Source: an uncultured bacterium (GTDB taxonomy: Bacteria > Bacillota_I > Bacilli_A > RFN20 > CAG-826). From it: DNA of 64,000 bases. Numbering within the stretch: the first letter of the stretch is position 1; the number at the start of each line of letters is the position of its first letter. Shown in pieces: positions 16,803-37,253 of this stretch. The stretch spans positions 3,996 through 67,995 of the forward strand of contig CASFTG010000003.1 of NCBI GenBank assembly GCA_949297805.1, given 5' to 3'. A model generated the notes under the pieces. That model ran no database searches and had not been told where the DNA came from. It saw nothing but the letters and a program-made list of their open reading frames with translations. The position numbers and the translations under genes were made by a program.

Positions 16803-17251
16803 AATTTCCTCGGTGTATATTTTATACAGCAAGGAAAATTAATACAAGGTGGCGCATTTCCGATTAGTATTTGCTAAAAATAAATTCTTAAAACTATGAG
16901 TTATGTCTTGACATTTATTGCGGGGGATATTTGTGAGTGTCTAAACTGAAGCGAAAATACGTTGATTTAAAGAGTTAAGTCCGTTTTAGAAGTCACGTCC
17001 TGCCCGACCCCTCGGTGCTATCGGATTAGGCTCGGCGTCAGCCTAACCTCGTCCGGCTTGATGAATCGGTACCTGTATAGGCCAGGTACCTTTTCAATGA
17101 GGAACGTTTTGGCCGAGATGCCTGGGCGGGTCAGGCTGAGTTTATTCCTGGGGTCGGAGCAGTAAAGCGGGACGGATTTTCAAAATAAATCGCCGATACC
17201 ATAATTTAGTCAATCAATGTATAGTTTTGTCGTGCCTAAAGGAAGAAAGCA

Positions 17252-18007: not shown

Positions 18008-18046
18008 AAAAAGTTTGCGGCGAGTATCTCAAATTACGGATTAACT

Positions 18047-19555: not shown

Positions 19556-19561
19556 CGCTTA

Positions 19562-20716
19562 TTAACGTTTCATGCACGATTGGTATAAACGTTCGAATTC
19601 TCTAGCGTTGCGTTCGGATGAAAACTTATTGGCCATTGTCTCTGGAACGGCTTTAAGCATATTCGCTATTTTGCTCTTATTGTTTAGGATGTTTTTCAGA
19701 ACACGGGAAAAATCCTCGTAGCTGTTCTGAGCATATAAAAACCCGTTTTTCCCATCCTCAATGATTTCCGCTGATCCTGCTTTGTTCGATGCCATCACGC
19801 ACAAGCCCGATAGTAGCCCTTCGACTGTGACTCTCCCAAAGGCTTCATAAGTGGAATTGACTACTTGAATATCTGCTATTTCGTATTCTGGCCTGACGTC
19901 ATTAAGGGCGCCAACAAAAATAATGTTATCTTGTATTTTGTGTTTTTCGGCAATTTCTTCGATAATCTGTTTCTCTTTTTCCGCGCAAAATCCGACGATT
20001 CGAATTTGAAAGTCTTCAGTGAGAATTCTTTCGTTTACGCAGCGGCCAAGCCAGTCACATATTTCCGCCTGGCCTTTATTTTTTTGAACTCTCCCAATAA
20101 GCAGGAATACTAAATTATCATTCGAAAATATTTCGTGATATGAGCCTCGGTAATATTTTATGTCCAACCCATCAAAAATCGTTTGGAGATTTGTTAATCC
20201 TAGTGATTGATATTTTTCGTGGACGGTTTTGGAAATGGGGACGACATAGGCTGCCTTCGCAAGAGCTTTTTTAGCATACTCTTTGTTGATAAAGCACATT
20301 TTCAACCCTTCTTCCAAAAGTTCCTGAATTTGCCAAACTACTGGTATGCCAAGATTTTCTGCCGCGCAACCAAAAGCATAACACCAAGAGGTGTTAATGT
20401 GGACGACGTCGGGCTTAAACTCTTTTATTGCTTTGGTTGCTGCTTCTAAATCAGACGACCTTTTTAAATAAAATCTAAGAATGGGCTTAATTTTGGATTT
20501 GATTTTTAAAAATCCTTTTGGCATAACCCAATCGTGCGATTTCACCAGTTGCCAGTCTAGCTTATTTTCAATGAGTAGTTTGGTTCCATCGCCTTCATAG
20601 GGTACTGTGACTCTTACTTCATGGCCAAATTCTTTAAGGTGTACTGCCAATTTGACCATGCAAAGGAAAGCGCCGGATGAACTATTATTATCTGAAGAGC
20701 AAATTAATATTCTCAT
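19562..20716 (-). CDS. Glycosyltransferase family 4
   Basis: GT-B fold: MRILICSSDNNSSSGAF… N-domain and a C-terminal E-x7-E-type region (…FGRVTVEGLLSGLCVMASNKAGSAEII…). Confidence 0.8.
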   Translation of the reverse strand: MRILICSSDNNSSSGAFLCMVKLAVHLKEFGHEVRVTVPYEGDGTKLLIENKLDWQLVKSHDWVMPKGFLKIKSKIKPILRFYLKRSSDLEAATKAIKEFKPDVVHINTSWCYAFGCAAENLGIPVVWQIQELLEEGLKMCFINKEYAKKALAKAAYVVPISKTVHEKYQSLGLTNLQTIFDGLDIKYYRGSYHEIFSNDNLVFLLIGRVQKNKGQAEICDWLGRCVNERILTEDFQIRIVGFCAEKEKQIIEEIAEKHKIQDNIIFVGALNDVRPEYEIADIQVVNSTYEAFGRVTVEGLLSGLCVMASNKAGSAEIIEDGKNGFLYAQNSYEDFSRVLKNILNNKSKIANMLKAVPETMANKFSSERNAREFERLYQSCMKR

Positions 20717-21062
20717 AGATTGAATCCTATCACAGATTTTCTATTGTTTTCTAACTATCAATATGCTGTGCAAATGCTGCACGCTAAGATAAATACGATT
20801 TTCTAACATAGGGCGGGAAATTGGCCGGTTCTCATCGGCTTCATAGCGAATAATAACATCTTTCTTTCGCTTAATCACTTCAGTCCAACTTTGTACTGCG
20901 TCTAGTATTGGAGTTTCTATGAGTTTTGCCAAGTATTAGGCTTATTAAGGGAGACGCTTAAGTCCGTATTTTCTTTGGATTCAGGCGCTTGTTATGGTTT
21001 TGACTTCGCAATTAAACGCTAGCAGGGTATCGACCGGCGAAATTTGTTTGATTTAAAGGCGC

Positions 21063-21200
21063 AATCAATCAATGTATAGTTTTGTCGTGTCTAGAGGAAG
21101 TAAGCAATGAACGATTACGGGCCCGTTACATCATCTCTTTGCATAACTTTTGCCGGTTCCTTAATAACGCCATCGGCATTAATTGGTTCACGCGGTTGCA
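21063..21200 (+). pseudogene. Decayed duplicate of the promoter-proximal region plus first ~20 codons of the GT2 gene at 17252 (gene fragment)
   Basis: Near-identical string TCAATCAATGTATAGTTTTGTCGTG(C/T)CTA(A/G)AGGAAG(A/T)AAGCAATGAACGATTA(T/C)GG… appears at 17211-17290 and 21063-21150. The downstream similarity (…GCCGGTTCCTTAAT(G/A)(C/A)CGCC(G/A)TCGG) carries indels that break the frame. Confidence 0.65.
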
Positions 21201-21274
21201 TTGTTTGTTCTCTAGGGGCGTTTGCGTCTTTTGGAAGCGCAAGAATGTCTAGCGAAATCACAGGATAGTCATTT

Positions 21275-21886
21275 ATGAATATGCCTAATATTTCTAAAAT
21301 TAAGACCAAAGCCGATTTGAAATCGGTTCTTGCATACGAGGAACCTTTATATGGGAACCGGTCTCCGTATTTGTACCGGCCAGTAATGTCCGAACAAGGA
21401 ATCGCCTGGAAAATTGTTTGTTTGTTGAGATATCACGAATATCATCTTAATAACGGACATAAGCTCAGGGCGACGTTTTATCGATTCCTACGGAAGAGAA
21501 TGGAACTTAAATATGGGGTTACCATTCCAACCAACGTCGTAGGGCCTGGATTATTGATGTTTCATCCGAGAAACATAATGATTAACGCGGCCAAATGCGG
21601 GAGTAATCTATCGATTCAATTCAACACCTCTCTTGTTGCCGGCGGTCATGATGGCTCAATCCCTGTTTTAGGAAATGACGTTACCATCGGCGTCGGATCG
21701 ACTATCCTTGGGGGGGTCAATATAGCCGACGGGATTGCCATTGGCGCCAACTCAATGGTCAACAAGTCTTTTGCAGACAAGAATATTTGCATTGCTGGTT
21801 CGCCGGCGAAAAAGATATCCGACAACGGCTCTTTCTCTTGGGGCGGGTCGGTGATGAACGTTTTAAAATCTAAGAAAAATAAATAG
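21275..21886 (+). CDS. Hexapeptide-repeat acyl/acetyltransferase (serine O-acetyltransferase-like sugar O-acetyltransferase)
   Basis: Left-handed beta-helix repeats (…VGPGLLMFHPRNIMINAAKCGSNLSIQFNTSLVAGGHDGSIPVLGNDVTIGVGSTILGGVNIADGIAIGANSMV…). Confidence 0.75.
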   Translation: MNMPNISKIKTKADLKSVLAYEEPLYGNRSPYLYRPVMSEQGIAWKIVCLLRYHEYHLNNGHKLRATFYRFLRKRMELKYGVTIPTNVVGPGLLMFHPRNIMINAAKCGSNLSIQFNTSLVAGGHDGSIPVLGNDVTIGVGSTILGGVNIADGIAIGANSMVNKSFADKNICIAGSPAKKISDNGSFSWGGSVMNVLKSKKNK

Positions 21887-21898
21887 GAGCGGTTAAAT

Positions 21899-22675
21899 AT
21901 GAAGGTCGTAATTCTTGCTGGCGGCTATGGGACGCGAATCTCCGAAGAATCGCATTTGAAGCCCAAGCCGATGATAGAAATCGGCGAGATGCCCATCATG
22001 GTCCATATAATGAAAATTTATGCGGCCCAAGGCTTCAAAGATTTTGTCATTTGTGCCGGATACAAGCAAAAGGTCATCAAGGAATATTTCGCCAATTATT
22101 ATTTGTATTGCCACGACGTTGTTTTTAACTTAGGTGACAATTCAGTTGAAACCATCAACAAATCGGATGATGACGATTGGAAGGTAACGGTTGTTGATAC
22201 TGGCCTAAACACCCAAACCGGCGGCCGGATTAAACGAATTCAGAAGTTCATCGGCGATGAGCCGTTTATGTTGACCTATGGTGATGCCGTTGGTGACGTT
22301 AATTTAAAGGCCCTATTGAACGAGCATAGGCTGTCTGGCAAAAAAGGGACGATGTCCGTCTATAATTTTGGGCAAGCCAAAGGTATTGTCGATATTGATG
22401 ACAAAGGAAATGTCAAAGCCTTTAGGGAAAAGTCGAATCTAGACGGAGATCTCATTAATATCGGTTTTATGGTCCTCGAACCATATATATTCGATTTGAT
22501 TGATGGCGATGATTGTGTCTTGGAGACCGGCCCCTTGAAGAAAATGGCTGATGCCGGTCAATTGGGTGCTTATGTCCATAAAGGATTTTGGCAATGCATG
22601 GACACTATGCGGGAAAAGAACAAGTTGGAGGAACTTTGGTCCTCAAGCAATCCCCCGTGGAAGATATGGAGGTAA
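21899..22675 (+). CDS. rfbF: Glucose-1-phosphate cytidylyltransferase
   Basis: MKVVILAGGYGTRISEESHLKPKPMIEIGEMPIMVHIMKIYAAQGFKDFVICAGYKQ is a near-canonical RfbF/DdhA N-terminus. Total 258 aa. Confidence 0.9.
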   Translation: MKVVILAGGYGTRISEESHLKPKPMIEIGEMPIMVHIMKIYAAQGFKDFVICAGYKQKVIKEYFANYYLYCHDVVFNLGDNSVETINKSDDDDWKVTVVDTGLNTQTGGRIKRIQKFIGDEPFMLTYGDAVGDVNLKALLNEHRLSGKKGTMSVYNFGQAKGIVDIDDKGNVKAFREKSNLDGDLINIGFMVLEPYIFDLIDGDDCVLETGPLKKMADAGQLGAYVHKGFWQCMDTMREKNKLEELWSSSNPPWKIWR

Positions 22676-22682
22676 TCATTCG

Positions 22683-23792
22683 ATGAGTCTGCTACTGGAT
22701 TTTTACAAAGACAAGACCGTTTTGGTGACTGGACATACTGGTTTTAAAGGTTCTTGGCTATGTGAGGTATTACTGTCGGCCGGGGCAAAAGTTGTTGGAT
22801 ATTCATTAAAGGCGCCGACCGATCCTAATTTGTTTGGATTGCTTAATTTAGAAAACCGGATCAACAGCGTTATAGGCGATATTAGGAACTTCGATAAACT
22901 GAAGCAAACTTTCGATGAGCATCAACCGGATATCGTTTTTCATTTAGCAGCTCAGCCGATCGTTATTGATTCGTATAAAGAGCCACGCTACACCTTCGAT
23001 ACCAATGTTATGGGGACTGTTAATGTCCTTGAATGCATAAGATTGTGCCCTTCCGTCAAATCATTTGTAAACATAACGACTGATAAGGTTTACGAAAATA
23101 ACGATTTGTATGACCACCGGTTTAAAGAAGACGAGAAATTAGACGGATACGACCCTTATTCGAATAGTAAATCCTGTTCAGAACTGGTAACTCATTCCTA
23201 TAAACGGTCTTTCTTCAACTATCCAGGAGCATGTGCGATTAGCACCGCTAGGGCAGGAAACGTGATTGGCGGTGGAGATTTCAGCCCGCATCGAATTCTC
23301 GTCGATGCCGTAAACTCGGCCCTCGATGGGGGGAAATTGGTTGTTAGAAACAAAAACTCAACCCGTCCTTACCAGTTCGTTTTGGAAGCTCTGTTTGTAT
23401 ATTTGCTGATTGCCGCCAAACAGTATCGAGAAGAAAAATACGCTGGATATTACAATGTCGGGCCAGATAAATCTGATGCGATTTCCAATGGTGACTTGGC
23501 AACTATTTTTTGCCAAGCCTGGGGCGAAGACATGGGTTGGATTGACCGCAGTGATCCTAGTGCCCCTCACGAATCGGCTTATTTGGCGCTTGATAACACT
23601 TTGCTAAAGCAGACGTTTAATTGGGCTCCTGCTATGCATGTTCAAGAAGCGGTATTATGGGTTGTCGAATGGGCTAAATGCTATGAGTCTGGTTCTAACA
23701 TCCGAACTTTGGTTGATAAACAAATTTTGACTTATGACAAAATTTTCGAGGATATGTTATGCAAAAATGGAAATTCCAAGAATTATCTTTGA
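22683..23792 (+). CDS. rfbG: CDP-glucose 4,6-dehydratase
   Basis: SDR extended fold. It has TGHTGFKGSWL (Rossmann GxxGxxG) and a YSNSK catalytic motif (YxxxK). Length about 370 aa. Confidence 0.85.
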   Translation: MSLLLDFYKDKTVLVTGHTGFKGSWLCEVLLSAGAKVVGYSLKAPTDPNLFGLLNLENRINSVIGDIRNFDKLKQTFDEHQPDIVFHLAAQPIVIDSYKEPRYTFDTNVMGTVNVLECIRLCPSVKSFVNITTDKVYENNDLYDHRFKEDEKLDGYDPYSNSKSCSELVTHSYKRSFFNYPGACAISTARAGNVIGGGDFSPHRILVDAVNSALDGGKLVVRNKNSTRPYQFVLEALFVYLLIAAKQYREEKYAGYYNVGPDKSDAISNGDLATIFCQAWGEDMGWIDRSDPSAPHESAYLALDNTLLKQTFNWAPAMHVQEAVLWVVEWAKCYESGSNIRTLVDKQILTYDKIFEDMLCKNGNSKNYL

Positions 23793-24325
23793 AGGGTGCC
23801 TATCTGATTGATGCTTTTTTTGCTCCCGATTTACGCGGTGGATTCTGCAAGGATTATTCTGAGGAAATATTTTGCCGGTTTGGCATCAATCACCCTCTTA
23901 AAGAAGTTTTTTATACCTATTCTCATAAAGGAGTGATTCGAGCCCTTCATTTTCAAAGAGTGTATCAGCAGGCTAAACTGGTTCGCTGCGTAAAAGGACA
24001 TGTGTTTGATGTTATCGTTGACCTTAGGCCTGGTTCACCAACATACAAGAAATGGCTTGGGTTTGATTTGACTGAAGAGAGTCATCAAGAGATTTTGGTT
24101 CCGGAGTACTTTGGCCATGGCTATCTAGTCTTGGAGGATTCCATCGTATCTTATAAATGCGCCGAGAAATTCTACTCGGAATATGACGGCGGGATTAAAT
24201 GGGATGACCCAGATATTGGTGTTCATTGGCCATTGGAAAAAATCGGTGGGCCTGATCATCTGATTTTGGCCGAGAAAGACAAGAATCTTCCTTCTTTCAA
24301 GGAGTTCCTTTCTTTGGATTTTTAA
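23759..24325 (+). CDS. RmlC-like cupin sugar-nucleotide 3,5-epimerase (dTDP-4-dehydrorhamnose 3,5-epimerase family)
   Basis: …FFAPDLRGGFCKDYSEE…RALHFQ…AKLVRCVKGHVFDVIVDLRPGSPTYKKW… (RmlC fold). It overlaps the rfbG end by 34 nt. Confidence 0.75.
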   Translation: MQKWKFQELSLKGAYLIDAFFAPDLRGGFCKDYSEEIFCRFGINHPLKEVFYTYSHKGVIRALHFQRVYQQAKLVRCVKGHVFDVIVDLRPGSPTYKKWLGFDLTEESHQEILVPEYFGHGYLVLEDSIVSYKCAEKFYSEYDGGIKWDDPDIGVHWPLEKIGGPDHLILAEKDKNLPSFKEFLSLDF

Positions 24326-24326
24326 C

Positions 24327-25394
24327 ATGCGCGTCCTGGAAGTAATAAATAGTTTGGGCACCGTTGGTGGGTCGGAGAATTTCGCCGTCAACTTCTGCAA
24401 GTATCTGAGTAGGCAAAGCGATATATATGTCTGCATCCTGTATTCGAAAAACGACGAGAGTTTGCTTGGCCGGCTCTTTCAAAGCATTGGTCATGATCGG
24501 GTCTTTATCTTAAACAAGACCGGCAGCTTTGATTTGAAAATCGCCAAGCAGATCAGAACTATAATAAAAACCTACGATATTCAAGTCGTTCATACTGAGA
24601 ACGATGCTTTGATTTCGACCTATCTAGCCGTGTTCCCGTTGTCTAAAAGGCCGAAGATTGTTCATACTCTCCACAATCCGCCCGATAAGGAATGTCAAAG
24701 TAGAATCAAGCGACTGATATACAAGCGTTTATTTAAAAAAGGCGTTGTCCATCCTGTTGCAATAACCAATGATATGGCTAAGGCGACTGAGAAATTTTAT
24801 AAACTTCAAAATGTTCCGTCGATACAAAACGGTGTTGATTTAGAAGTTTATACTGCCGGTCAGGCCTTGAACAAGCGAGGAAAAGATTGCACCATCTTGG
24901 CTCGTTTAACCGACCAAAAGAATTATCCTTTCGTATTGAATGTTTTCAGAAAAGTTCACGATTTGATTCCGCTTGCTAATTTCTTTATTTATGGCGATGG
25001 CGAATTAAAGGAATGGTTGTTAAGTGAGATCGAAGGCCTCGATTATATTCATTATGAAGGTATTACCAATCAATCTTTTGCAGTTTTGCAGGATTCAAAA
25101 ATCTTCTTTTTGGGTTCTAAGTACGAAGGCAATCCTATGTCAATCTGGGAAGCCATGGCTACTGGATGCATTTGTGTTGTTCCAAACATTAATGGATTGG
25201 ACGAGATTATCGGTAGAGATGCCGGATTTGTTTTAGAGGCTGGCAACGTCGATTTGTTTGCTGCGAAAATCGCCGAGATTCTTCAACGTCCTGAATATTT
25301 TATTAATATGCAGGGAAAAGCAATTGCTAAAGCTTCGCAGAATTCGTTTGAAAACGTTTGCAATCTGTATATGCAACAATTTGAGAAAGCATAA
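24327..25394 (+). CDS. Glycosyltransferase family 4
   Basis: GT-B fold, 355 aa, with MRVLEVINSLGTVGGSENFAVNF… and a C-terminal EGNPMSIWEAMATGCICV motif. Confidence 0.8.
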   Translation: MRVLEVINSLGTVGGSENFAVNFCKYLSRQSDIYVCILYSKNDESLLGRLFQSIGHDRVFILNKTGSFDLKIAKQIRTIIKTYDIQVVHTENDALISTYLAVFPLSKRPKIVHTLHNPPDKECQSRIKRLIYKRLFKKGVVHPVAITNDMAKATEKFYKLQNVPSIQNGVDLEVYTAGQALNKRGKDCTILARLTDQKNYPFVLNVFRKVHDLIPLANFFIYGDGELKEWLLSEIEGLDYIHYEGITNQSFAVLQDSKIFFLGSKYEGNPMSIWEAMATGCICVVPNINGLDEIIGRDAGFVLEAGNVDLFAAKIAEILQRPEYFINMQGKAIAKASQNSFENVCNLYMQQFEKA

Positions 25395-25438: not shown

Positions 25439-28400
25439 TTGATAGGACTTCCCACTGCAACCCTAGCCTTTAGGCTATATAATTTCCTCGCTATGCCAAT
25501 CGACCAACTCAATAATCCAACTTCTAGTGACAAGATCTACCTTGATATCGAATCCTCTAAGTCCATCTGCTACGTTAACTATCGGGCGGAGAAACTGATC
25601 AAGATCCGCCGTTCTTCCAGTAAGTCCAATATCTTTTCCTTTATCAAGCGGATCTCGATCAAGAACTTCACCGATAAGGATGTCTATAACGCCTATCTCC
25701 ATTTCAACTTCCATTCCGAATCCATCGCCATCGATGATGTCCCTCTTTCGTGCTTGCAAGCCCACAAGATAACCACGGTCGATAGCTTTAACCTGATTCT
25801 TGATCCGAAGTATCTTTATGACCTATCGGAGGTCGAAGCCTTAACCGTTTCTATTTCTCTGATTGGCGAAGACAACGAAACCATCGAATCCAAGAACATC
25901 GATATCCGGTTATTGCCCATCGCCCAATCAGCCGGCGAGGACTTCGTTCCCGAATCGATTGCCTCTTTCATCACGCCCAATGACGATGAGGTTCAAGAGT
26001 TGGCTAATAAAGCCGCCTATATCATGGAGGATAAGTATCAGACTTCTTCTTTCGTTGGTTATCAGACTCATGATCCCGAAACCGTCATGCATGAGTTGGA
26101 TGCCTTATACCTAGCCCTCCAACAATCGGGTATCCATTATTCCAATCCCCCGGCCTCTTTCGAAAAGACTTTCCAAAGAGTCCGGATGCCGAAAGATGTC
26201 ATTAACGATAAGACTGCCACCTGCTTAGATTTCTCTTTGCTATTTGCCTCTTTATGTGAAGCGGTAGGGCTAAATCCCTTACTTATCGTTTTGAATGACC
26301 ATGCCTATAACGGGGTCTGGTTAGAGAACCTCCATTATCCGAATGCCATCTTCGATAACCTGACTGTTTTATCTAACGATTGTTCGGATACCGATCGCCG
26401 GATGGTCTTAATCGATTCGACCAATGCGGCCTCGGGATCGGATATCAACTTCCAGGCGTCTTTATCGAAGGCGGCTGCCTTACTTAACGTTGGCAAATTC
26501 GATTACTGCCTTGACGTTAAGACCGCTCGTCTCGACTATATCCTCCCTTTGCCGACCCCTCATACGGTTAATGGCAAGACCGAGGTTAATTATGATGACA
26601 CCATCGGGACTGAATACGATGTCCCGACCGTTGCTCCTTCCTCTGGGTCATTGTCTTTAGAGTCCAAAGGCAATAAGACTAAGTTCGATGTTTGGGAAGA
26701 GAACCTATTGGATTTGGAGATGAGCAATAACCTCATCAACCATAAGATCGGGGCCTCCTCCGTTCAATTAGGTGCGGACGATGTCTTCGATTTCTATTCC
26801 CGAGCTAAAGACATCGATAAGTTAAGCGTTATCCCCGACAATGATCTAAAGGCCGAGGACCTTAAGCATTTCCTCGCCTTCCAATTTTCCATTGAGGATA
26901 AGAAACGGTTCAAAGGGGCCTTTGCTTCAAAAAGGGTCTATGCCTTCAATAAGAAGGGAGAGACCGAGGATACATTGATATCTTTAGCCCGGAAGGCCTC
27001 GACCCAAATCGAGGAAAGCGGGTGTAACCCTCTCTTTTTAACTCTCGGTATGGTCCATTGGTATGACAATAACTTATCCAAGCAGACCATCGCTGCCCCG
27101 ATTATTTTGATCCCGGCCTCCATGCCCAAGCGGCGTTCGGGTCCCTATTTCTCCTTAGAACTCGACTTTGATTCGGCCCAGGTCAATGCCGCGGCCTTTG
27201 AATACTTCCGTCGGGCCTTCGATATGGACTTCTCCGAGCTCGATGGTTTCTTCGACACTGAACGTTCGGTCGATGATTTAAAGAAACTATTCAATACCAT
27301 CCGAGAAAAGATTGCTTCTAAAGGCAACTGGATGGTCGATGATACGACTGTAACTTTATCTTTATTCTCCTTCGCTCACTTCGTCATGTGGAATGACATG
27401 AAGACCCATCGGGATCTATTTATTCAAAATAAAGTCGTGGCTTCGATGGTCCATGGGAAAGAGGAATACGACACCACCCCGAAGGAACTATATGAGAACA
27501 ATCTCGATGATATCATCGCCCCCGATGATTTAGCCGTCCCTTTAAGCGCCGATTCCTCCCAACTATTGGCCATTAAGGCCTCGGATATTGGCCTATCCTT
27601 TGTCCTTGATGGTCCCCCGGGGACCGGCAAGTCCCAGACCATCGCCAACATCATCGTCAACGCGATGTATAAGGGGAAGAAAGTATTGTTCGTCGCGGAA
27701 AAAGAAGTCGCGTTGGATGTCGTCAAGAACCGATTGGATTCTTTGTCCTTGGGTCGTTTCTGCTTACAGATCCATTCGGCCAAAGCCAATAAGAAGGATG
27801 TCTTAGCTCAATTAGGGGAATCCTTAGCCACGGGACAAACTAGATCGGTTGAAGGGTTCAACGATGAGGCTAAGAAGCTAAAGGATGAACGGGATGCCTT
27901 GAACGCGACCTTAAAGGAGATCCACGTAAAGGGCAATTACTTTGTTTCGCCCTATACCGCGTTGATTAAGTACTTAGAGAACGAATCGTCCAAAGGCAAC
28001 TGCGAGGTTTCGTCCGACTATGCCAAGGCCATCGATGAAAAGAAGTATAACGAAGCCATCTCAACCATCGAGGATATTGTCGTTCTCGGCCATAACGTCA
28101 ATGGGTATTATGGCAGCCCCTTCATCTATTATGGCTGCCGGGATTACTCGTTGGATTTAAGAGAACAATTCCAAGAACGGTTGCCATCCTTGATCGCCGC
28201 CTTGGAATCGTTCTCGGCTGCTTATACCTCCTTATCCAAGAAGATCGGCTTTGGGATGAAGTTATCGAAGAACAACGCCAATCGCTTGGTTTATATCCTG
28301 AATCTGATCAAGGCCGATCCGAAGTTGTTCTTCCCCGACTTAATCGAAGGGGGAACGATCCTTAACGAGACAGTTAACATCAAATCCTATTTCGATGGGT

Positions 28401-31276
28401 TATTGGTCTACTTGGCATTGAAGGAAGAAGTCGGCAAATCCTTTGAATATGGAGTATTGGAACTCGATGCCAGCGATCTTAAACGCCATCTAGAAAACTC
28501 CTGGAATTACGGGTTCTTTGCCAAGCGCAAAGCCATCAAGCAAACCAAAAAGGCTTTAAAGCCCTTTGCCAAATCCAAGATAAAAACCGGGGATTTGCAA
28601 CCAATTCTCGATAAACTCATCCTTCTCCGCCAAATGAAGGAGGATTTGGACAATCGGGCGGGGTATTGCACGATTATCTTCCCCGATGAGGATAAGAAGA
28701 CTTTGGTCGAGGCTCAGTTAGACCAGACCAAGATCAATAATAGTTTGGCCCTCTTAGATGCCATCCGCCATCTCGACGTCAGCGAGGATTCCGACTACAA
28801 GAAAGCCAACAAGGTCTTTGCTTCAATTATTCGTTCCCCTGACAAGCCATACGAAGAACGGATCGCCAACTTCCTTAATGGCGAAGCCGATCTAGTCAAA
28901 GCCAATAAAGAGTTGGAGGATATCCATTTTGACATCAATGCTGCGGATGATTCCGATGTCTATTACGCCTATGCCTTGACCCAGATCAAGAACTCCTATC
29001 AAGGGTTAGAGAGACTCGGTGAGTGGTGCAAGCTCTTATCTTGCTTAGATAAATCCGAGGCCGTCTTACCGAAGTCCTTAATCGATAATTACAAAGGCGG
29101 CAAGGTCAGCCTATCGAAGCTCCGTTCCTCCTTCGACTGCGCCCTCTTCTATCGGATCGTCTCCTTATCGCTTAGCGAACTGGGGCTTACTAACTTATCT
29201 TCTGCCGAGACCGAACAACAGATTGAGAAGTACAAGAAGGCTTTAGCTGCTTTCCAGCGGTTAACGGTTGAGGAGACGGCAAGAAGAATTACCGCCTCCT
29301 TCCCTCGGACTGATGTTGAATACGCCGAATCTTCTTTGGCTTATCAATTACGGAAACTCATCAAGACGGCGGGGCGGGGCAAGACCCTCCGTTCCATCAT
29401 CGACCAATATAGTGATGATATCTTTAGGCTATGCCCGATCTTCTTGATGTCGCCGTTATCGGTCGCCCAATATCTTGATCCGAACAAACATCATTTCGAT
29501 ATTGTTATCTTCGATGAGGCCTCGCAGATCCCGACTAGCGAAGCCATCGGGGCGATTGCTAGAGGCAACTCCTGCATCATCGCCGGCGATCAGCAGCAAA
29601 TGCCTCCGACCGACTTCTTCACCTCCTCCTTATCCTTCGCCGATCAGCCTAACGATGATGTCGTCGTCTACAGCGACCTCGAGTCCCTCCTCGATGACGC
29701 GATTGCTTTGAACCTTCCTCGTTATCGTTTGTCTTGGCATTATCGAAGCCATCATGAATCGCTGATTGCCTTTAGCAATAACCGATTCTATGACAATACC
29801 CTTTGCACTTTCCCCTCGCCTTCCAATCAGGAAAGCCAGGTTCACCTCGTTCGGGTCAATGGCCATTATGAGAAAGGACGAGGGGTTAATAGAGAAGAAG
29901 CCAAAGCCATCGTCAATGAGGTTATTAGACGTTGCAAGGACCCTGAACTCAGCAAGCTCTCAATCGGAATCGTCACCTTCAACAAGAAGCAGCAGGATCT
30001 CATCACCGATATGCTCGATTCGAAGTTTTTCTCGTCCACCAGCTTGAATAGAACTCCCGGCGGGGAAGAGATCTTCGTCAAGAACTTAGAGAACGTCCAG
30101 GGGGATGAAAGAGACGTCATCCTCTTCTCCGTTTGCTTCGGCCCGGATAAGAAGACGAAGAAGATGAATCTTAACTTCGGGCCCTTAAGCCGGGAAAAGG
30201 GAGAGAGACGGTTAAACGTCGCCGTATCAAGGGCTAAGGAGGAGATGGTCGTCTTCTGTTCGTGCCGGCCTGAGGACATCCGGGCCTACTCGGCCAAAAA
30301 CAGCGGCGCCGAGTTCCTCCGTTCCTTCCTCATCTATGCCGAATCGGGGGTCCGTTCCTTGGCCAATCAGTCGAGCTGGGATATTAAGCCCGAGGATTTA
30401 TCGATTGCTTCCTTCTTGGCCTCTGATTTGCTTCGTGATGGTTATCAAGTCGATATCAATGTCGGGGCCAGCGAGTTCAAGGTCGACATTGCCATCAAGG
30501 ATCCATTAGATCCTGACCGTTATGCTTTAGGGGTCTTAGTCGATGGGCCTAGTTATGCCTCGCCTTCTTATACCTGCGATGACCGGAATGTGGTGGCCCC
30601 GGGCGTCCTTAATAATCTTTCTTGGCGCTTAATGCGGGTTTGGTCGGTTGAGTACCTTGACCATCCGGGTTTAGTGGTTCGAAAGATTGAGAAGGAATTA
30701 AGCGCCCCTCGCTCCGCCACCGAGGTCAAGGAACAGGCGACCAAACCTGTCTCATTGGTTAAGGCGACTCCGGATAATCCCTATCCCCATAAGAAGGAAT
30801 ATCCGGCAGTTAACTATGCTCATTTAGTTAATATCATTCGCGATTTGCCGGGGGCGATTGCTGGGGTGTTAGCCAATGAATCACCCATCTCCATGACTCT
30901 TCTTAAGAAACGGGTCCGCGATATCTATTCCCTTAAGCGGGTTGACAACAAGATGCTGTATCGTATTCAGACGATCCTTAGACAACTTTCTGCTTATGGC
31001 GAAGAGTTCGATAATGAGATCTATTGGTGGGCCTCTTCCTTAGACCCTGAATCCTACGATGCTTATCGCGTTGGCGGTGACCGGGAGATTGGGGATGTAT
31101 CTAGACAAGAGATATTGTTAGCCAAAGATGACATCGAATTCTTGCAGGGTAAGATCAGCGATGAAGATTTATGCCATGAGATTTTAGAACTGCTCGGATT
31201 CAACGTTTTATCCGAAAGAAGCAAGACTCATATCGTTCGGGCGCTGAATGGGGATATTGGGGAGAAAGCCAATTAG
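25439..31276 (+). CDS. Giant multidomain protein: N-terminal region with a transglutaminase-like Cys/His signature, Upf1-like SF1 helicase (AAA_11/AAA_12), Vsr/DUF559-like endonuclease fold, C-terminal DUF3320-like region. Architecture is of the 'DUF4011 helicase' type
   Basis: Single 1945-aa frame. TGase-like CLDFSLLF…DHAYNGVWLE (~nt 26210-26325). Helicase motifs: I GPPGTGKSQT (27611-27640), II IVIFDEASQI (~29501-29530), then HYRSHHESLIAFSN, VTFNKKQQDLI, VQGDERDVILFS and LNVAVSRAKEEMVVFCS. Endonuclease-like segment VLVDGPSYASP…NLSWRLMRVWSVEY (~30520-30650). Start uncertain: TTG 25439 (weak AAAGG SD) or ATG 25493 (-10-like TATAAT just upstream). Confidence 0.8.
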   Translation: MIGLPTATLAFRLYNFLAMPIDQLNNPTSSDKIYLDIESSKSICYVNYRAEKLIKIRRSSSKSNIFSFIKRISIKNFTDKDVYNAYLHFNFHSESIAIDDVPLSCLQAHKITTVDSFNLILDPKYLYDLSEVEALTVSISLIGEDNETIESKNIDIRLLPIAQSAGEDFVPESIASFITPNDDEVQELANKAAYIMEDKYQTSSFVGYQTHDPETVMHELDALYLALQQSGIHYSNPPASFEKTFQRVRMPKDVINDKTATCLDFSLLFASLCEAVGLNPLLIVLNDHAYNGVWLENLHYPNAIFDNLTVLSNDCSDTDRRMVLIDSTNAASGSDINFQASLSKAAALLNVGKFDYCLDVKTARLDYILPLPTPHTVNGKTEVNYDDTIGTEYDVPTVAPSSGSLSLESKGNKTKFDVWEENLLDLEMSNNLINHKIGASSVQLGADDVFDFYSRAKDIDKLSVIPDNDLKAEDLKHFLAFQFSIEDKKRFKGAFASKRVYAFNKKGETEDTLISLARKASTQIEESGCNPLFLTLGMVHWYDNNLSKQTIAAPIILIPASMPKRRSGPYFSLELDFDSAQVNAAAFEYFRRAFDMDFSELDGFFDTERSVDDLKKLFNTIREKIASKGNWMVDDTTVTLSLFSFAHFVMWNDMKTHRDLFIQNKVVASMVHGKEEYDTTPKELYENNLDDIIAPDDLAVPLSADSSQLLAIKASDIGLSFVLDGPPGTGKSQTIANIIVNAMYKGKKVLFVAEKEVALDVVKNRLDSLSLGRFCLQIHSAKANKKDVLAQLGESLATGQTRSVEGFNDEAKKLKDERDALNATLKEIHVKGNYFVSPYTALIKYLENESSKGNCEVSSDYAKAIDEKKYNEAISTIEDIVVLGHNVNGYYGSPFIYYGCRDYSLDLREQFQERLPSLIAALESFSAAYTSLSKKIGFGMKLSKNNANRLVYILNLIKADPKLFFPDLIEGGTILNETVNIKSYFDGLLVYLALKEEVGKSFEYGVLELDASDLKRHLENSWNYGFFAKRKAIKQTKKALKPFAKSKIKTGDLQPILDKLILLRQMKEDLDNRAGYCTIIFPDEDKKTLVEAQLDQTKINNSLALLDAIRHLDVSEDSDYKKANKVFASIIRSPDKPYEERIANFLNGEADLVKANKELEDIHFDINAADDSDVYYAYALTQIKNSYQGLERLGEWCKLLSCLDKSEAVLPKSLIDNYKGGKVSLSKLRSSFDCALFYRIVSLSLSELGLTNLSSAETEQQIEKYKKALAAFQRLTVEETARRITASFPRTDVEYAESSLAYQLRKLIKTAGRGKTLRSIIDQYSDDIFRLCPIFLMSPLSVAQYLDPNKHHFDIVIFDEASQIPTSEAIGAIARGNSCIIAGDQQQMPPTDFFTSSLSFADQPNDDVVVYSDLESLLDDAIALNLPRYRLSWHYRSHHESLIAFSNNRFYDNTLCTFPSPSNQESQVHLVRVNGHYEKGRGVNREEAKAIVNEVIRRCKDPELSKLSIGIVTFNKKQQDLITDMLDSKFFSSTSLNRTPGGEEIFVKNLENVQGDERDVILFSVCFGPDKKTKKMNLNFGPLSREKGERRLNVAVSRAKEEMVVFCSCRPEDIRAYSAKNSGAEFLRSFLIYAESGVRSLANQSSWDIKPEDLSIASFLASDLLRDGYQVDINVGASEFKVDIAIKDPLDPDRYALGVLVDGPSYASPSYTCDDRNVVAPGVLNNLSWRLMRVWSVEYLDHPGLVVRKIEKELSAPRSATEVKEQATKPVSLVKATPDNPYPHKKEYPAVNYAHLVNIIRDLPGAIAGVLANESPISMTLLKKRVRDIYSLKRVDNKMLYRIQTILRQLSAYGEEFDNEIYWWASSLDPESYDAYRVGGDREIGDVSRQEILLAKDDIEFLQGKISDEDLCHEILELLGFNVLSERSKTHIVRALNGDIGEKAN

Positions 31277-31283
31277 ATTGTGG

Positions 31284-32246
31284 TCAACGCTTAATTTTGC
31301 GAGCAAAAAAGAATCCTAATTTTGAGAAATGAAATGCCGCGCAGAATTTGATGATTTTTGAATCATTAATTGTTTGCTTGAGCATGGTATATTTGGTCAA
31401 ATCCTTATACATTTTATACAATTCGGCGGAAGTATCCTTATTAACGGACGTTTTCTCGTTAACCAAGCTGGTTATGTAGAGATAAAGCATATTCGCTATC
31501 GATCGCGAAAATTGTGCGCTTGTGCCGTTGCTGGTTTTTAAGGCATCTGGATAGCGACTAAAAACGGAATAAAGAACATGAATTAGATCATTTTTATGCT
31601 TTAGAACGCTAGCGGAGCTTACGCTTTGTTCGCTGTTCCCAAGCCGATACATGTAAACGGAAAAGGGAAGATAATAGAATTTTGTGGCATAAAGCAAGGG
31701 GAGACAAACGTATTCTTGGTCTTCGTAGAAGACTTTTTCCGATAAAGTTATACGGTTATTGTCGAAAAGGCTTTTTTTATACGTTATTGAGTGGATTGCC
31801 AAATTCACAGAACTAATATTTTCGATTGGCCCTTCAACTCCATGATTGTGGGTTTTAATGTACTTTGTTTCGTTTGGATAAACTTGACAGAAGTCATTAA
31901 CGATAACGTCGCAATCGGTATTTTTAAGAAACGCTACAAGCTTTGTCAAACCATCGGTATTAACCCAATCGTCTCCGTCCACTATTTTAAAATATTTACC
32001 GCGAGCCAATTTAATTCCGAAATTGATAACCGAACCATGTCCTCCATTGCTTTTGTGAATTGCCTTGAAAAGCCTGGGATTCTTCGTTTCGTATTCCTTT
32101 GCCTTATTCAGGGAATCATCAGGCGACCCGTCATCAATTAACAAAACCTCAATATCCTCGATGCCGATGAATGTTGGCAAGCAGCTATCCATGAACATAG
32201 CGGTTTTATAGGACGGCACGATGATAGATAGTATTGGTTTGTCCAT
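31284..32246 (-). CDS. Glycosyltransferase family 2
   Basis: LSIIVPSYKTAMFMDSCLPTFIGIEDIEVLLIDDGSPDDS…IVDGDD (DXD). AT-rich. Confidence 0.85.
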   Translation of the reverse strand: MDKPILSIIVPSYKTAMFMDSCLPTFIGIEDIEVLLIDDGSPDDSLNKAKEYETKNPRLFKAIHKSNGGHGSVINFGIKLARGKYFKIVDGDDWVNTDGLTKLVAFLKNTDCDVIVNDFCQVYPNETKYIKTHNHGVEGPIENISSVNLAIHSITYKKSLFDNNRITLSEKVFYEDQEYVCLPLLYATKFYYLPFSVYMYRLGNSEQSVSSASVLKHKNDLIHVLYSVFSRYPDALKTSNGTSAQFSRSIANMLYLYITSLVNEKTSVNKDTSAELYKMYKDLTKYTMLKQTINDSKIIKFCAAFHFSKLGFFFARKIKR

Positions 32247-32337
32247 TGCGAATCCTCCTCATAGATTCATGACTCATTTTGAACGCCCGGCTTAAGATTT
32301 GCCAGTTTTCAGAAGCCGATTGATAAAAGATGCCTTT

Positions 32338-33399
32338 TTAATTTTCAAATAGATCCAAGTATTTTTGAGCCATCATACGGCTGGAAAAAGATTCGGAATA
32401 TCTCCGAATATTTTCCAAGTTTGGGGCAATATAATTGGTATAGGCTCTCTCTAAATCATCGCAAAGAGTTGATGCTGATGAAATGTCTACCAAATGGCAG
32501 ATTGGATCGTTAACGAATAGTTGTAAATGTCCAGAGGTATAAGGAGAAACAATGTTGCACCCACCCAAGGCTGCTTCCAAGTAAGTCATTCCTAAGGGCT
32601 CAAGGGAATTCAACGAGACAAAGAATTTGGCGTCTTTGTATATCTTTGAAACTTGGTCATGTGGAATCCCTCCTAAATATTCAATATTGTTATGTACAAA
32701 TTTTCCATTTCCTTCGAAGAAAGGCTGTAGTTCGCCGGCTCCTGCGACGGCCAATTTAAGATCGGGATATCTCTGAATTAATTTTAAGAAGGCGTCGCAA
32801 AGTAATTCGACGTTTTTGTCCCGATATAATCGGCCGACATATAGGAAATCGTATTGGCGTGGTTTGTTGGTTTCGTTCTCTTTCAAAGCGAACTCATCAA
32901 TGTCGGCAAGTCCATTTGGTATCACGGCATCAGCTTTGATGTTATAGATTTTGGAGTTAATGGCTTGGGACAAATAGGAAACAGTGACTGTTTTGTCGAA
33001 ATGTTTTGCCGAATAACGGGCTACCAAATTTACAAAGAAGGAATGAAGCCGTCCATTGGTTGGGCAAGCCATTCCATGGAGAACCGAAACAAATTTAGAT
33101 TTTGGGGAAGCCTTTTTGTACCGCTTTATTCCTATGTTGTATTGCAAAGAGGAAACGACGATGTCCGGTGATTCCCGTTTGATTACTTTGGCGATTTTGC
33201 CAATCTTTCCGATAATATGAAACGTATTATATTTATGTGCCTTTACAACAATATTATTTAATTTTGATGATTTGGCTAGTGAGACCATATTGGCATTGCA
33301 GCCTAATTCATTTAGCCCGTTGGTCAAGCTTTCCGAGATGGTCGCTACACCGCCAGACAGTTTGTCGTTCAGAACGGGGCCTAGTATGAGTACTTTCAT
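32338..33399 (-). CDS. Glycosyltransferase family 4
   Basis: GT-B fold: MKVLILGPVLNDKLSGGVATISE… and EPLGMTYLEAALGGCNIVS. AT-rich. Confidence 0.8.
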   Translation of the reverse strand: MKVLILGPVLNDKLSGGVATISESLTNGLNELGCNANMVSLAKSSKLNNIVVKAHKYNTFHIIGKIGKIAKVIKRESPDIVVSSLQYNIGIKRYKKASPKSKFVSVLHGMACPTNGRLHSFFVNLVARYSAKHFDKTVTVSYLSQAINSKIYNIKADAVIPNGLADIDEFALKENETNKPRQYDFLYVGRLYRDKNVELLCDAFLKLIQRYPDLKLAVAGAGELQPFFEGNGKFVHNNIEYLGGIPHDQVSKIYKDAKFFVSLNSLEPLGMTYLEAALGGCNIVSPYTSGHLQLFVNDPICHLVDISSASTLCDDLERAYTNYIAPNLENIRRYSESFSSRMMAQKYLDLFEN

Positions 33400-33427
33400 T
33401 GTGTTTTACAGCGTTTAATTATGATAA

Positions 33428-34780
33428 GTGATTGTATACAATTCGTTTATAGAGTTAAATTCTTTCCTGTATTGTTCTATGGGTAATAATCAATCATTAG
33501 CTGAGTATAATGGCGTCATTCTCGAGAAACGAAGTTTTATGGGCAAACTTTGGGCTTTCTTTAAAAAATCTTGGTTTTACCGGGCGATTGAATTGGTTTT
33601 AGCCTTCGCTTCCATTTTTGCCTCACCACTTATTTCTTATGCGCTGCCGTCAAATAATGTTCCGTCGATAGTTAATCTGATTTCCGAGAATCAGAAAACT
33701 TATGGCGATTATCCGGTGGGGACGGTAAAACTTCTTCAGTCTGACCTTTATTATTATCGTTTTGATGACCTGCCTATGGCCTCAATGTTGCGTTTATACG
33801 GTGCCAATCCGGATGTCGCCGCCTTTAAAATTTACCAGAACGAGAAATTTAAGATTACCGATACCGAAACCGGTCTTGCGATGTCGTCCTCTTTCGTAAG
33901 CACTACTGTTGTAAAAAGCGACGATACCTATTCGAAGGTTTTCTTCCCTCTAGACGAAGAGGGGGGGAATTCGTGGTCATTAGCCAGTGACTGGACTTTT
34001 TATCCTGAGGGCTTGGAAATTGGAATTCCCGTTAACTTTGCCGATTCTTTGCTCGATAAATTGTCGCTCCCGGCTGGTGATTATGATTCGCTTTTGGGCA
34101 GGGAGATTCGATTAGACGGCAATAAGAGTTTCCCTGATCAGATCTATTCAATTGCCTGCGTCTTTGATGCCTTTGATCCATCTTTTTCTAAACTTCCCGG
34201 ATTCTTGGGGAACTACTGTTTGATTCGTTTTGAAAATCCTTTATACATGCCTGTTGAACTTTATTTCGAATGTTTCGATGACTCCAACGGGGCCTTGAGC
34301 GATTTCCTCAATTCCTTGAACACCTTCTTCCCGGATAGCACGACTAGGCAAGAACACTACCTGTCTTTTCATTATCAAGTTGATGGCGAATATATTGTCG
34401 ATGAAGGCGACGAAACTTTTTTGTCATCGATGTATGCCCTCCGCGATCCGATGAATATGGTCCCCATGATCGTTTTGGGAACCTTCATCGTTTTAGCGCT
34501 GCTTTTCGGATTCCTTTTGGTGTTTTGGCTGGAAATGCGATCTTTGTCTTACGCCGAAAAAGCAATGGCGGCTAAATTTGCTTTCGTTTCATTTGTATTT
34601 GGCTTTATTTTGTCTTGTTTCGCGTGGCTTGTTTTCGGTGGCTTCGAATTCGCTAATGGCTACGTTGTTCCGATATTTACGACGGTGAATTTGGCCGTGA
34701 TTTTTACGGCGCTGATTGTTTTTCTTGCCTTTGCCTTTGTTTCTTATAAGCTTTCGGTTAAGCAAACATCAAATATTTAG
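33428..34780 (+). CDS. Membrane protein of unknown function (N-terminal TM, ~300-aa extracytoplasmic domain, C-terminal 4-TM bundle)
   Basis: The ORF is embedded in the polysaccharide locus and its hydrophobicity pattern was read from the translation. Several alternative start Mets exist (33428 or the MGKLWAFF… Met). No recognisable catalytic motif. Confidence 0.5.
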   Translation: MIVYNSFIELNSFLYCSMGNNQSLAEYNGVILEKRSFMGKLWAFFKKSWFYRAIELVLAFASIFASPLISYALPSNNVPSIVNLISENQKTYGDYPVGTVKLLQSDLYYYRFDDLPMASMLRLYGANPDVAAFKIYQNEKFKITDTETGLAMSSSFVSTTVVKSDDTYSKVFFPLDEEGGNSWSLASDWTFYPEGLEIGIPVNFADSLLDKLSLPAGDYDSLLGREIRLDGNKSFPDQIYSIACVFDAFDPSFSKLPGFLGNYCLIRFENPLYMPVELYFECFDDSNGALSDFLNSLNTFFPDSTTRQEHYLSFHYQVDGEYIVDEGDETFLSSMYALRDPMNMVPMIVLGTFIVLALLFGFLLVFWLEMRSLSYAEKAMAAKFAFVSFVFGFILSCFAWLVFGGFEFANGYVVPIFTTVNLAVIFTALIVFLAFAFVSYKLSVKQTSNI

Positions 34781-36223
34781 GCTTCTTTCCTTCAGGACCC
34801 AAGTTGCTTGTAGACGGTTGCCAATTGTTTTCGGTTCGTAATCTTGCCGTGCCATAGATATTGTTAAAATGATGATCATCTGAACTTCCAGATTAGCAGT
34901 TACGGTAAGCCCAAAGCTGAAGATGATGAACAGAACCAAAGGAAAGTAAAGCCATTTGAATTGTGATTTCGGCTTATTTTTTGGGCGAGCTAGCATCAAG
35001 ATCATCATGTATATATACAAGAATGTACCGATTATTCCTAACTCCCAAACATAGTTGATTATTGCGTTGTGGGCAACGGTTAAGCCATCCGGCCGCGCAT
35101 AGTACATTGACCTTACGCCTTGACCAAATATCATCTTGGCGGGATTGGCGCATAATATTCGCAGATAGTCGGCCCAGATGCTAACTCGGCCAGTCGTAAT
35201 TGTGTCCCAAAATGACTCATCGACCATGTTTGGTGACAAAAACCTGCTTAGGATGGCCGCGACTGGCCCGATTCCTAATATTGCCAATGATACGCTCACC
35301 AGTCCACAGACGGCAAAGACGGTGGCGAAGGCTAGGGTTGGGCGATAATAGGCGGTTTTTATGAATAACATGAATATTAATAAGGCAACGCAAATAAGAT
35401 AGCTTTTCGATTGAGTTAAGGCCGTTAATAACATAATCGCCAACGTTGTGCTAAGTACAATGGTGATTTGCTTTTTGTTTGAGAACTTATAGCCAAAAAA
35501 GACGAATGACGTGATGATTATTGTTATCATTGATAACTCATTGGGGTCAGCACAGAATCCATAGAATCTATCTTTCAAAATAACGAAATCTCCGTCTTTT
35601 GGGGCGACATAGTAGACATCGAACTTCGGCCTTAATGGATCAACCATCAAGAACCCGAGTGCAATAAATAACGAAGCTAAGTGGATTAGTGTCAGGTAGT
35701 TTAAAGTCGCATTTAACGATTTGTTGGAATTTTTGTCAACCACGGCGAATATTGGCAGGGCCGAGTATAAACAAAAAGAAACGGCGGTAACTATGTTTTG
35801 GAGCCCGCTATTAACGATAGTTATTAAGAAGGCGTAGATAACAAAAATAAGATAGATGGCAACTAATTTGAAATTTGATTGTAGCATCGCAACGATATCT
35901 TGTTTTCTGGTATATTGGAATGCCACCCGTGCTAAATAGACTAAAAACAAAGTTGAGGTCAACGTTAGTGGCAATGATTCGGGAGTTATAAGCAGCGGGG
36001 AAGGCACGAATGTGCAAAGAATCAAAATCAGGTTATTTTTTCCTGAAGATAGCAGGATATACAAAACAAACAACGCAAAATTAATTAGAGACAGTACTGG
36101 CTTTTGTAGATAAATGGTCAAACATCCGATGGCAAAGGCTAAGACAATTAACGTCGGCATAACGAATTTTCTGTCCAACGTTTTGTTTATAGGCTTTTTA
36201 ATGTTTGACAATATATTGCCCAT
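34769..36223 (-). CDS. wzy: O-antigen polymerase/ligase-like (Wzy-type) polytopic membrane protein
   Basis: 484 aa and at least 10 TM helices, with a large loop near the C-terminal third typical of the O-antigen ligase/Wzy family. It is co-located with wzx and the glycosyltransferases. Confidence 0.6.
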   Translation of the reverse strand: MGNILSNIKKPINKTLDRKFVMPTLIVLAFAIGCLTIYLQKPVLSLINFALFVLYILLSSGKNNLILILCTFVPSPLLITPESLPLTLTSTLFLVYLARVAFQYTRKQDIVAMLQSNFKLVAIYLIFVIYAFLITIVNSGLQNIVTAVSFCLYSALPIFAVVDKNSNKSLNATLNYLTLIHLASLFIALGFLMVDPLRPKFDVYYVAPKDGDFVILKDRFYGFCADPNELSMITIIITSFVFFGYKFSNKKQITIVLSTTLAIMLLTALTQSKSYLICVALLIFMLFIKTAYYRPTLAFATVFAVCGLVSVSLAILGIGPVAAILSRFLSPNMVDESFWDTITTGRVSIWADYLRILCANPAKMIFGQGVRSMYYARPDGLTVAHNAIINYVWELGIIGTFLYIYMMILMLARPKNKPKSQFKWLYFPLVLFIIFSFGLTVTANLEVQMIIILTISMARQDYEPKTIGNRLQATWVLKERSLNI

Positions 36224-36335
36224 TTGCTCGAGTTTAAGTTTCTAGTATGTAAGCGAAAATCATCGCCTTCGAAATTCTATTTCATTTGGTTTTCTAAATA
36301 AATGATAATTAGCCTTGTCCGAGGGAGGGCTTGAT

Positions 36336-37250: not shown

Positions 37251-37253
37251 AGA

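Follow-up and report, generated by a model that had tools for sequence, protein, structure and literature searches.

We analysed a 64,000-nucleotide (nt) stretch of DNA from an uncultured bacterium (contig CASFTG010000003.1, positions 3,996 to 67,995; hereafter the window), in which a single giant gene, on the forward strand and ending at position 31276, lies within a polysaccharide locus. On balance, we consider it probable that this gene is a divergent member of the ProA family (PDC-S37 in PADLOC), coding for a stand-alone Upf1-like superfamily 1 (SF1) helicase protein of ~1900 amino acids (aa) that is annotated as anti-phage and would act in helicase-guided defence. The original prediction had taken the gene for a candidate single-gene defence system of the Nhi kind, inserted in the middle of the locus and with an architecture that awaited characterisation. 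Its central idea gains from our analysis, while several of its parts had to be revised.

Assignment to the ProA family

The assignment comes from two models. The NCBIfam equivalog NF058533.1, "anti-phage protein ProA", matches the protein at 1527.7 bits (cut-off 1500) in a single, collinear alignment of aa 45-1904 to profile positions 6-1902 of 1903, with the same domain order. The PADLOC single-gene candidate model PDC-S37 matches at 5.6e-295 (aa 395-1919 to positions 7-1531 of 1550), and no partner recurs among the 146 nearest neighbours of family members in 40 loci, which are spread over 160 Pfam families, as befits a system made of one gene. The protein shares with ProA/PDC-S37 the order of its modules (immunoglobulin (Ig)-like, transglutaminase (TGase)-like, DUF4011, SF1 helicase, Vsr-like and winged-helix tail) and the lack of a partner gene. 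It differs in being devoid of the nuclease Glu and His found in Klebsiella-type members, and its gene is fixed inside a polysaccharide locus with a conserved 5' block of its own. Strong members of the family, such as a Klebsiella IncF plasmid protein (2225 bits) and a Bacteroides finegoldii protein (2197 bits), align end to end with the window protein at about 30% identity. Since these score around 2200 bits, and closer relatives of the window protein only 1465-1489, we place it at the divergent edge of the family.

There are many full-length homologues, and the nearest named relatives come from metagenome-assembled genomes of gut Bacillota. The Ig plus TGase module alone retrieves 1828 clusters (50% identity) at E<=1e-10, nearly all of them proteins of 1900-2300 aa in which the module is N-terminal.

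The protein also resembles Hhe ("DUF4011 domain-containing anti-phage protein Hhe", NF042953), with which it shares the C-terminal helicase half and the Vsr-like domain, and whose family description includes DUF4011. The NCBIfam model of Hhe aligns to aa 1014-1749 alone, at 612.4 bits against a cut-off of 2000, and the PADLOC one to aa 1242-1736 at 4.6e-131; in these scans Hhe models leave the N-terminal ~1000 residues unmatched, and with them the Ig and TGase module. Nhi (nuclease-helicase immunity) likewise unites an SF1 helicase with a nuclease-fold domain in one polypeptide, but the window protein is roughly double the size of Nhi and carries further modules (Ig/TGase, DUF4011 and winged-helix); its nuclease site is degenerate, and no PADLOC Nhi model matches it at E<=0.1. 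The likeness to Nhi is thus not borne out. The single-gene defence proposal is strengthened by the ProA equivalog and PDC-S37, yet the architecture, far from being uncharacterised, already falls under named families (Hhe, PDC-S37 and ProA). Literature searches found neither the source of the ProA name nor any test of PDC-S37.

Domain architecture

An uninterrupted open reading frame (ORF) on the + strand spans 25439..31276 (1945 codons counted from a TTG), and all the motifs quoted in the original prediction are present in it. The features of the gene, in window coordinates, are as follows.

25493..31276, + strand: ProA-family coding sequence, 1927 aa plus stop (the mechanical ORF starts at TTG 25439)
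25535..25915, + strand: N-terminal Ig-like beta-sandwich, about aa 15-141 (AlphaFold2 model)
25940..26587, + strand: transglutaminase/papain-like domain, about aa 150-365 (AlphaFold2 model)
26702..27193, + strand: DUF4011, aa 404-567 (Pfam 3e-26, 92.7 bits)
27551..27970, + strand: SF1 Upf1-like helicase domain 1A, with Walker A GPPGTGKSQT (K713); Pfam AAA_11 at aa 687-826, 5.2e-18
27983..29392, + strand: insertion of ~470 aa between helicase motifs I and II, aa 831-1300
29471..30265, + strand: helicase motifs II-VI and domain 2A, aa 1327-1591 (DEASQ, GDQQQMPPT, VQGDERD, LNVAVSRAK)
30419..30700, + strand: Vsr/DUF559/MTES_1575-like PD-(D/E)xK fold, aa 1643-1736 (Pfam MTES_1575 2e-15, 57 bits)
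30791..31249, + strand: C-terminal winged-helix domains, about aa 1767-1919 (region matching DUF3320 in relatives)

Motifs I, II, III, V and VI, together with AAA_11 and with AAA_12 (aa 1397-1591, 3.3e-20), identify the core as an Upf1-like SF1 helicase, and by sequence it matches IGHMBP2, Upf1 and Sen1 in the PDB. Helicase cores alone match there: no ProA or Hhe relative was found in the PDB by sequence. The insertion between motifs I and II has no Pfam match and is the least conserved part of the protein (87% identity to an orthologue, and the highest ratio of non-synonymous to synonymous substitution rates (dN/dS), 0.07-0.08).

In the Pfam profile search (gathering cut-offs of 38.2 bits for MTES_1575, 23 for Transglut_core and 25 for DUF3320), aa 1643-1736 cleared the MTES_1575 threshold. 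Two of the predicted domains fell short: Transglut_core (PF01841; E 0.077, 13.7 bits against 23) and DUF3320 (PF11784; E 0.065, 13.7 bits against 25), although many relatives do carry PF11784 in the homologous C-terminal region. The domain list first proposed was therefore essentially right, with DUF4011, AAA_11, AAA_12 and MTES_1575 significant and the other two below the Pfam threshold. The folds of the enzymatic cores, the Vsr-like one included, were confirmed.

For the N-terminal module, a structural model agrees with the prediction of a papain/TGase-like fold. An AlphaFold2 model of aa 1-400, built with 47 homologues (predicted local distance difference test (pLDDT) 85.6, predicted template modelling score (pTM) 0.82), has two domains. 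In the second, Cys244 marks the N-terminus of a helix, His270 opens the strand that follows and Asp341 closes a later one. In the model these residues are in the papain/TGase arrangement, and form a candidate triad. The domain has the fold common to TGase-like cysteine proteases and the PNGase/Rad4 group (BDI_1141, 3kd4; TglA, 9crn; LapG, 4fgo). As in 3kd4 and animal transglutaminases, a beta-sandwich precedes the catalytic core, and the Cys lies at a helix N-terminus and the His on the next strand, as in this group. What sets the window domain apart is its fusion to a helicase; its Foldseek E-values are weak, at about 1e-3.

Conservation of the active sites

To compare the catalytic residues we used 226 full-length relatives aligned to the family hidden Markov model, a sample biased toward relatives of the query, so that the fractions below are indicative only. 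The helicase motifs are invariant: the Walker A Lys (K713) is present in 224/224 aligned relatives, and D1341 and E1342 of motif II, as well as Q1369, in 226/226. The candidate triad is almost as constant, with C244 in 207, H270 in 206 and D341 in 204 of the 210 relatives having the module (~98%).

The Vsr-like domain has fared differently. D1665 (212/226) and D1684 (216/226) are widespread, and both are retained in the window protein. A Glu at 1682 is found in 55/226 relatives and a His at 1689 in 51/226, and both are missing in 170/226. The canonical ProA motif is GVECDGxxYH, as in Klebsiella (GVECDGATYH); B. finegoldii has GIICDGKNYK and the window protein GVLVDGPSYA. One Klebsiella ProA that carries both Glu and His is WP_064360768. 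The canonical Glu aligns to the ExDG Glu (EADG) of the DUF559 structure 3hrl. This putative catalytic Glu and the His that follows are replaced by L1682 and A1689 in the window protein, the nuclease of which is, as a consequence of losing both, probably inactive or non-canonical, as judged from the sequence. The window domain shares a fold derived from PD-(D/E)xK with both RAP domains and DUF559/Vsr-like endonucleases, and its LVDGPSYAS is similar to the RAP motif FVDGPSDFYSS.

These data bear on whether the protein could be a canonical helicase-nuclease of the Hhe/Nhi type, with a Vsr-like domain that still cuts DNA by means of D1665 and D1684, the N-terminal module serving only as sensor or scaffold. 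The retention of both aspartates in most relatives and the low dN/dS of the domain (0.03) speak for it, and Vsr itself binds its metal mainly through one Asp. Conversely, Glu and His are jointly lost in three quarters of the sample, while members with the canonical motif keep both; the lost Glu is the one that aligns with that of 3hrl, and the Glu-less form resembles RAP domains. We consider this explanation quite unlikely, and the helicase plus nuclease logic of the original prediction doubtful for this protein.

The same loss, in sequences that keep Cys, His and Asp, suggests that most members may not be helicase-nucleases at all. We tentatively propose, giving it a modest chance, that most ProA-like members are helicase-guided cysteine enzymes that would act on a phage or host protein after engaging an invader, here in a form that is fixed, and expressed from its own promoter, in a capsule locus.

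A conserved 5' control block

The most likely start of the gene, from sequence comparison, is ATG 25493, giving a product of 1927 aa that begins MPIDQLNN, because an identical 1927-aa product is already recorded in a public protein collection (P0121), because orthologues share the same initiator Met, and because in the orthologous locus L081 (93% identity) an in-frame TAA closes the upstream extension. TTG 25439 was rejected as a start, given the public record and the in-frame TAA.

Directly before this ATG lies a block with the following elements.

25447..25492, + strand: conserved 5' control block (46 nt): ACTTCCCACTGCAACCC, palindrome, TATAAT, 9 nt, then ATG
25464-25477, + strand: perfect 14-nt palindrome TAGCCTTTAGGCTA, abutting TATAAT
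25478-25483, + strand: TATAAT, 9 nt 5' of ATG 25493

The 46 nt are near-identical in L081 and L094 (93% aa identity) and in L082 and L083 (69%), and have been kept despite a synonymous divergence (dS) of 1.19 in the coding sequence and different upstream genes. The palindrome occurs once in the window, with 0 occurrences expected by chance, and at the same offset in all four of these loci. Its conservation is not due to coding, since in L081 the palindrome contains an in-frame TAA. No Shine-Dalgarno sequence is found in the block before ATG 25493. Taken together, the block is probably the promoter of the gene with a putative operator, and would give a near-leaderless mRNA. A promoter and terminator scan around the gene gave counts that were not above those of shuffled sequence; the terminator scan entered the palindrome at 25464-25477 as a hairpin.

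A stable resident of a variable polysaccharide locus

The gene has polysaccharide genes on both sides, as first described: to the left, glycosyltransferase (GT) family GT2, Wzx, GT4, RmlC and others; to the right, GT2, GT4, Wzy, an epimerase, GT4 and Bac_transf, the convergent GT2 gene being separated by a gap of 7 nt (31277-31283). It is also richer in GC than the flanking sugar genes, at 47.6% versus 40-42%. From this layout the original prediction had concluded that the gene was inserted into the locus, which describes the present arrangement only and not its history.

Orthologues at 93%, 69%, 67% and 51% identity all lie directly upstream of the priming transferase Bac_transf, and in relatives the two genes are on the same strand with 0-105 nt between them. 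The window has six genes between ProA and Bac_transf and L095 has one, a Gtf3-type GT, whereas in L081 and L094 there are none. Beyond Bac_transf, orthologue loci usually share genes for His_Phos_1, a 305-aa protein and a cation-efflux protein, and ProA is recovered at this site also by look-ups that start from the His_Phos_1 neighbour and thus assume nothing about ProA. The sugar genes around orthologues, by contrast with this fixed site, change from strain to strain; the polysaccharide genes at 17252-25394 and 31284-38306 differ in content in the close relatives L081, L084, L085, L094 and L095, on both sides of ProA.

Composition tells the same two parts of the locus apart. The GC content at third codon positions (GC3) of the ProA gene is 59%. 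The rest of the window (the backbone) has 49.8% GC, and four backbone genes just downstream have a GC3 of 65-76%, while that of the sugar genes is mostly 40-47%, with a few genes up to 52%. Relative to the backbone the compositional outliers are therefore the sugar genes. Between the window gene and L081, dN/dS is 0.039 at dS 1.19, and 0.01-0.08 for every domain, so that every domain is under strong purifying selection. The fixed site in orthologues of 51-93% identity, the near-backbone GC and a dN/dS of 0.04 indicate that the gene is an old, constrained resident. The sugar genes, and not the ProA gene, are the mobile and compositionally foreign part.

The protein could alternatively have been co-opted by the polysaccharide locus, for example to control the expression, recombination or switching of its gene cassettes. 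Within the lineage its gene indeed always has Wzx or other sugar genes upstream and Bac_transf, which shares its strand, downstream, and on either side sugar genes are swapped between strains. Against such a role, no homologue of 18 sugar-locus or flanking proteins of the window was found in 80 GTDB ProA loci (1.53 Mb), making the association a lineage-specific synteny; we hence rejected a polysaccharide link as a trait of the family. Besides, the gene has its own conserved promoter-like block, and none of its domains points to sugar chemistry. We regard co-option as very improbable. We read the position in the capsule locus as the mark of a region that is long-lived, prone to recombination and a collecting place for other defence genes too, with no sign of a role in sugar synthesis. 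Translational coupling between ProA and Bac_transf was also considered and rejected: the overlap called in L081, L082 and L094 is insecure, and a conserved ATG lying 40-48 nt further downstream would serve as start just as well.

Three further ORFs of the window deserve mention. Two have no Pfam or PADLOC match: one of 450 aa at 33428-34780 (+), and the 305-aa ORF at 39966-40883 (+), which is kept beside His_Phos_1 and is 99% identical in L081. The mechanical dehydratase ORF at 22551-23792 (+) shares 125 nt with the NTP_transferase gene before it and matches Pfam from residue 56; its real start is probably further downstream than 22551.

Defence genes nearby and distribution of the family

Several other genes of the window match defence models. 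Two overlapping genes at 14849-16832 (-), on the left margin of the polysaccharide locus and with a GC content of 42.7%, below that of the backbone, code for a 394-aa AAA_21 ATPase (PADLOC AbiLi 1.9e-45, PDC-M12A 5e-23) and a 268-aa RloB-like protein (PDC-M12B 1.7e-9, AbiLii 6.7e-6). By its sequence matches the pair looks like an AbiL-type two-gene defence system. Two AAA_14 + DUF4143 proteins match PDC-S01, at 43753-45081 (-; 6.6e-143) and 58620-59990 (-; 4.1e-102). The first lies just past a UDP-glucose dehydrogenase gene, where L081, L094 and L095 have SLFN_AlbA_2 and HATPase_c_4 in its stead, a replacement that suggests a variable slot. At equivalent places, relatives have SLFN-type ATPases, an AAA and S8 protease pair, or PDC-S01-type genes. 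The AbiL-like pair, the PDC-S01 genes and these genes of relatives make the region a mixed capsule and defence neighbourhood.

More widely, the family has at least 566 matches in GTDB species of many phyla. In a raw tally, the 146 neighbours mentioned above include Wadjet JetA/B, retron-type reverse transcriptases, Csn2 and GajB-like proteins. Some copies are found on conjugative or mobilisable plasmids (IncF), flanked by the insertion sequences IS110 and IS5. Carriage by phages is rare: full-length matches in IMG/VR number about four, and GenBank adds a single unannotated "phage" contig of 11 kb. The Klebsiella ProA gene had no match in 2026 RefSeq E. coli genomes.

Individual loci show how diverse the surroundings are. 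Immediately upstream of a ProA relative there is an AAA ATPase and Peptidase_S8 pair in L087 (6586-9871), and AIPR (Abi-like) and Macro-domain genes in L088 (6655-9854). In L001 (7928-9364) and L091 (8514-9956), where ProA is ~38-40% identical to that of the window, a prolyl-tRNA synthetase gene lies immediately upstream on the same strand, which is probably a shared synteny within one lineage. In L093 (NZ_OY725931.1, B. finegoldii "plasmid 29", 45.8 kb) ProA abuts a reverse-transcriptase family gene; the replicon is typed as a plasmid, yet rpsA, glutamine synthetase III and trxB surround ProA, and because of these genes it looks like a chromosomal fragment.

Judged as those of a defence-island gene, the surroundings are mixed: they vary across the family and include some defence genes, but many neighbours are housekeeping genes, and within the lineage the position is fixed.

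Weighing the defence reading

A number of observations weigh against the view that the gene serves defence. Its ProA score lies only 28 bits above the cut-off, and the relatives P0012, P0030 and P0049 fall just below it; with no primary paper found for ProA, the anti-phage label goes back to database names. Within the lineage the gene behaves like a core gene, with its fixed position, strong purifying selection and near-backbone GC, and many neighbours of distant relatives are housekeeping genes, for instance those for ProRS, TrpA and HisG. In one published study (PMC10250203), a large DUF4011 gene, comparable to ours by its DUF4011, is reported to be core, and to act as a flanking gene, in every P. 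aeruginosa isolate. The loss of Glu and His means that a simple helicase-nuclease mechanism may not apply here, and we infer, rather than observe, the role proposed for the transglutaminase-like domain.

Much of this would suit a vertically inherited housekeeping helicase for genome maintenance, working for instance on R-loops, stalled forks or damaged DNA and resembling defence proteins through shared ancestry. Synteny fixed across orthologues of 51-93% identity, a dN/dS of 0.04 with saturated dS, GC near the backbone, a core of the Upf1/Sen1/IGHMBP2 type, the P. aeruginosa gene and the several distant loci amid housekeeping genes are all consistent with it, and a TGase fold is also present in the Rad4/XPC damage sensors. 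Rad4/XPC, however, has no catalytic triad, whereas Cys-His-Asp is conserved here. The family is moreover patchy across species and phyla, without a conserved neighbourhood, and has copies on plasmid segments flanked by insertion sequences; and the protein passes both the curated anti-phage equivalog and the PADLOC defence-candidate model. We hold a genome-maintenance role to be unlikely, and retain helicase-guided defence as the probable function.

How such a defence might work can be outlined. The protein would be made constitutively, or under a repressor binding the palindrome TAGCCTTTAGGCTA. Using ATP, the helicase would load, together with the DUF4011, Vsr-like and winged-helix domains, on the nucleic acid of an invader, or on a replication intermediate, and translocate along it, and this engagement would license an effector step that stops the phage from propagating. 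In ProA proteins of the canonical kind, such as the Klebsiella plasmid copies, the effector could plausibly be DNA cleavage by the Vsr-like domain. In the window protein, this domain may more likely just bind nucleic acid, as RAP domains do, and since its site has lost both Glu and His, the near-invariant cysteine-enzyme domain (a protease, transglutaminase or deamidase) would be the likelier catalytic effector or activator.

Implications

The architecture has already been named, by a curated anti-phage family (ProA) and a PADLOC model, and the finding is to that extent largely explained. Three aspects may still be of use to workers in the field, provided that the untraced ProA paper has not already dealt with them: the loss of nuclease residues alongside a kept triad, the 5' block and the stable embedding in a capsule locus. 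The first, seen in most sampled members, bears on which domain is the effector of the family. The second, with its palindrome and TATAAT, suggests that expression is regulated and possibly leaderless. Finally, a gene of a defence family that has long been embedded in a capsule locus, while the sugar genes around it turn over, is the opposite of the usual picture of mobile defence genes.

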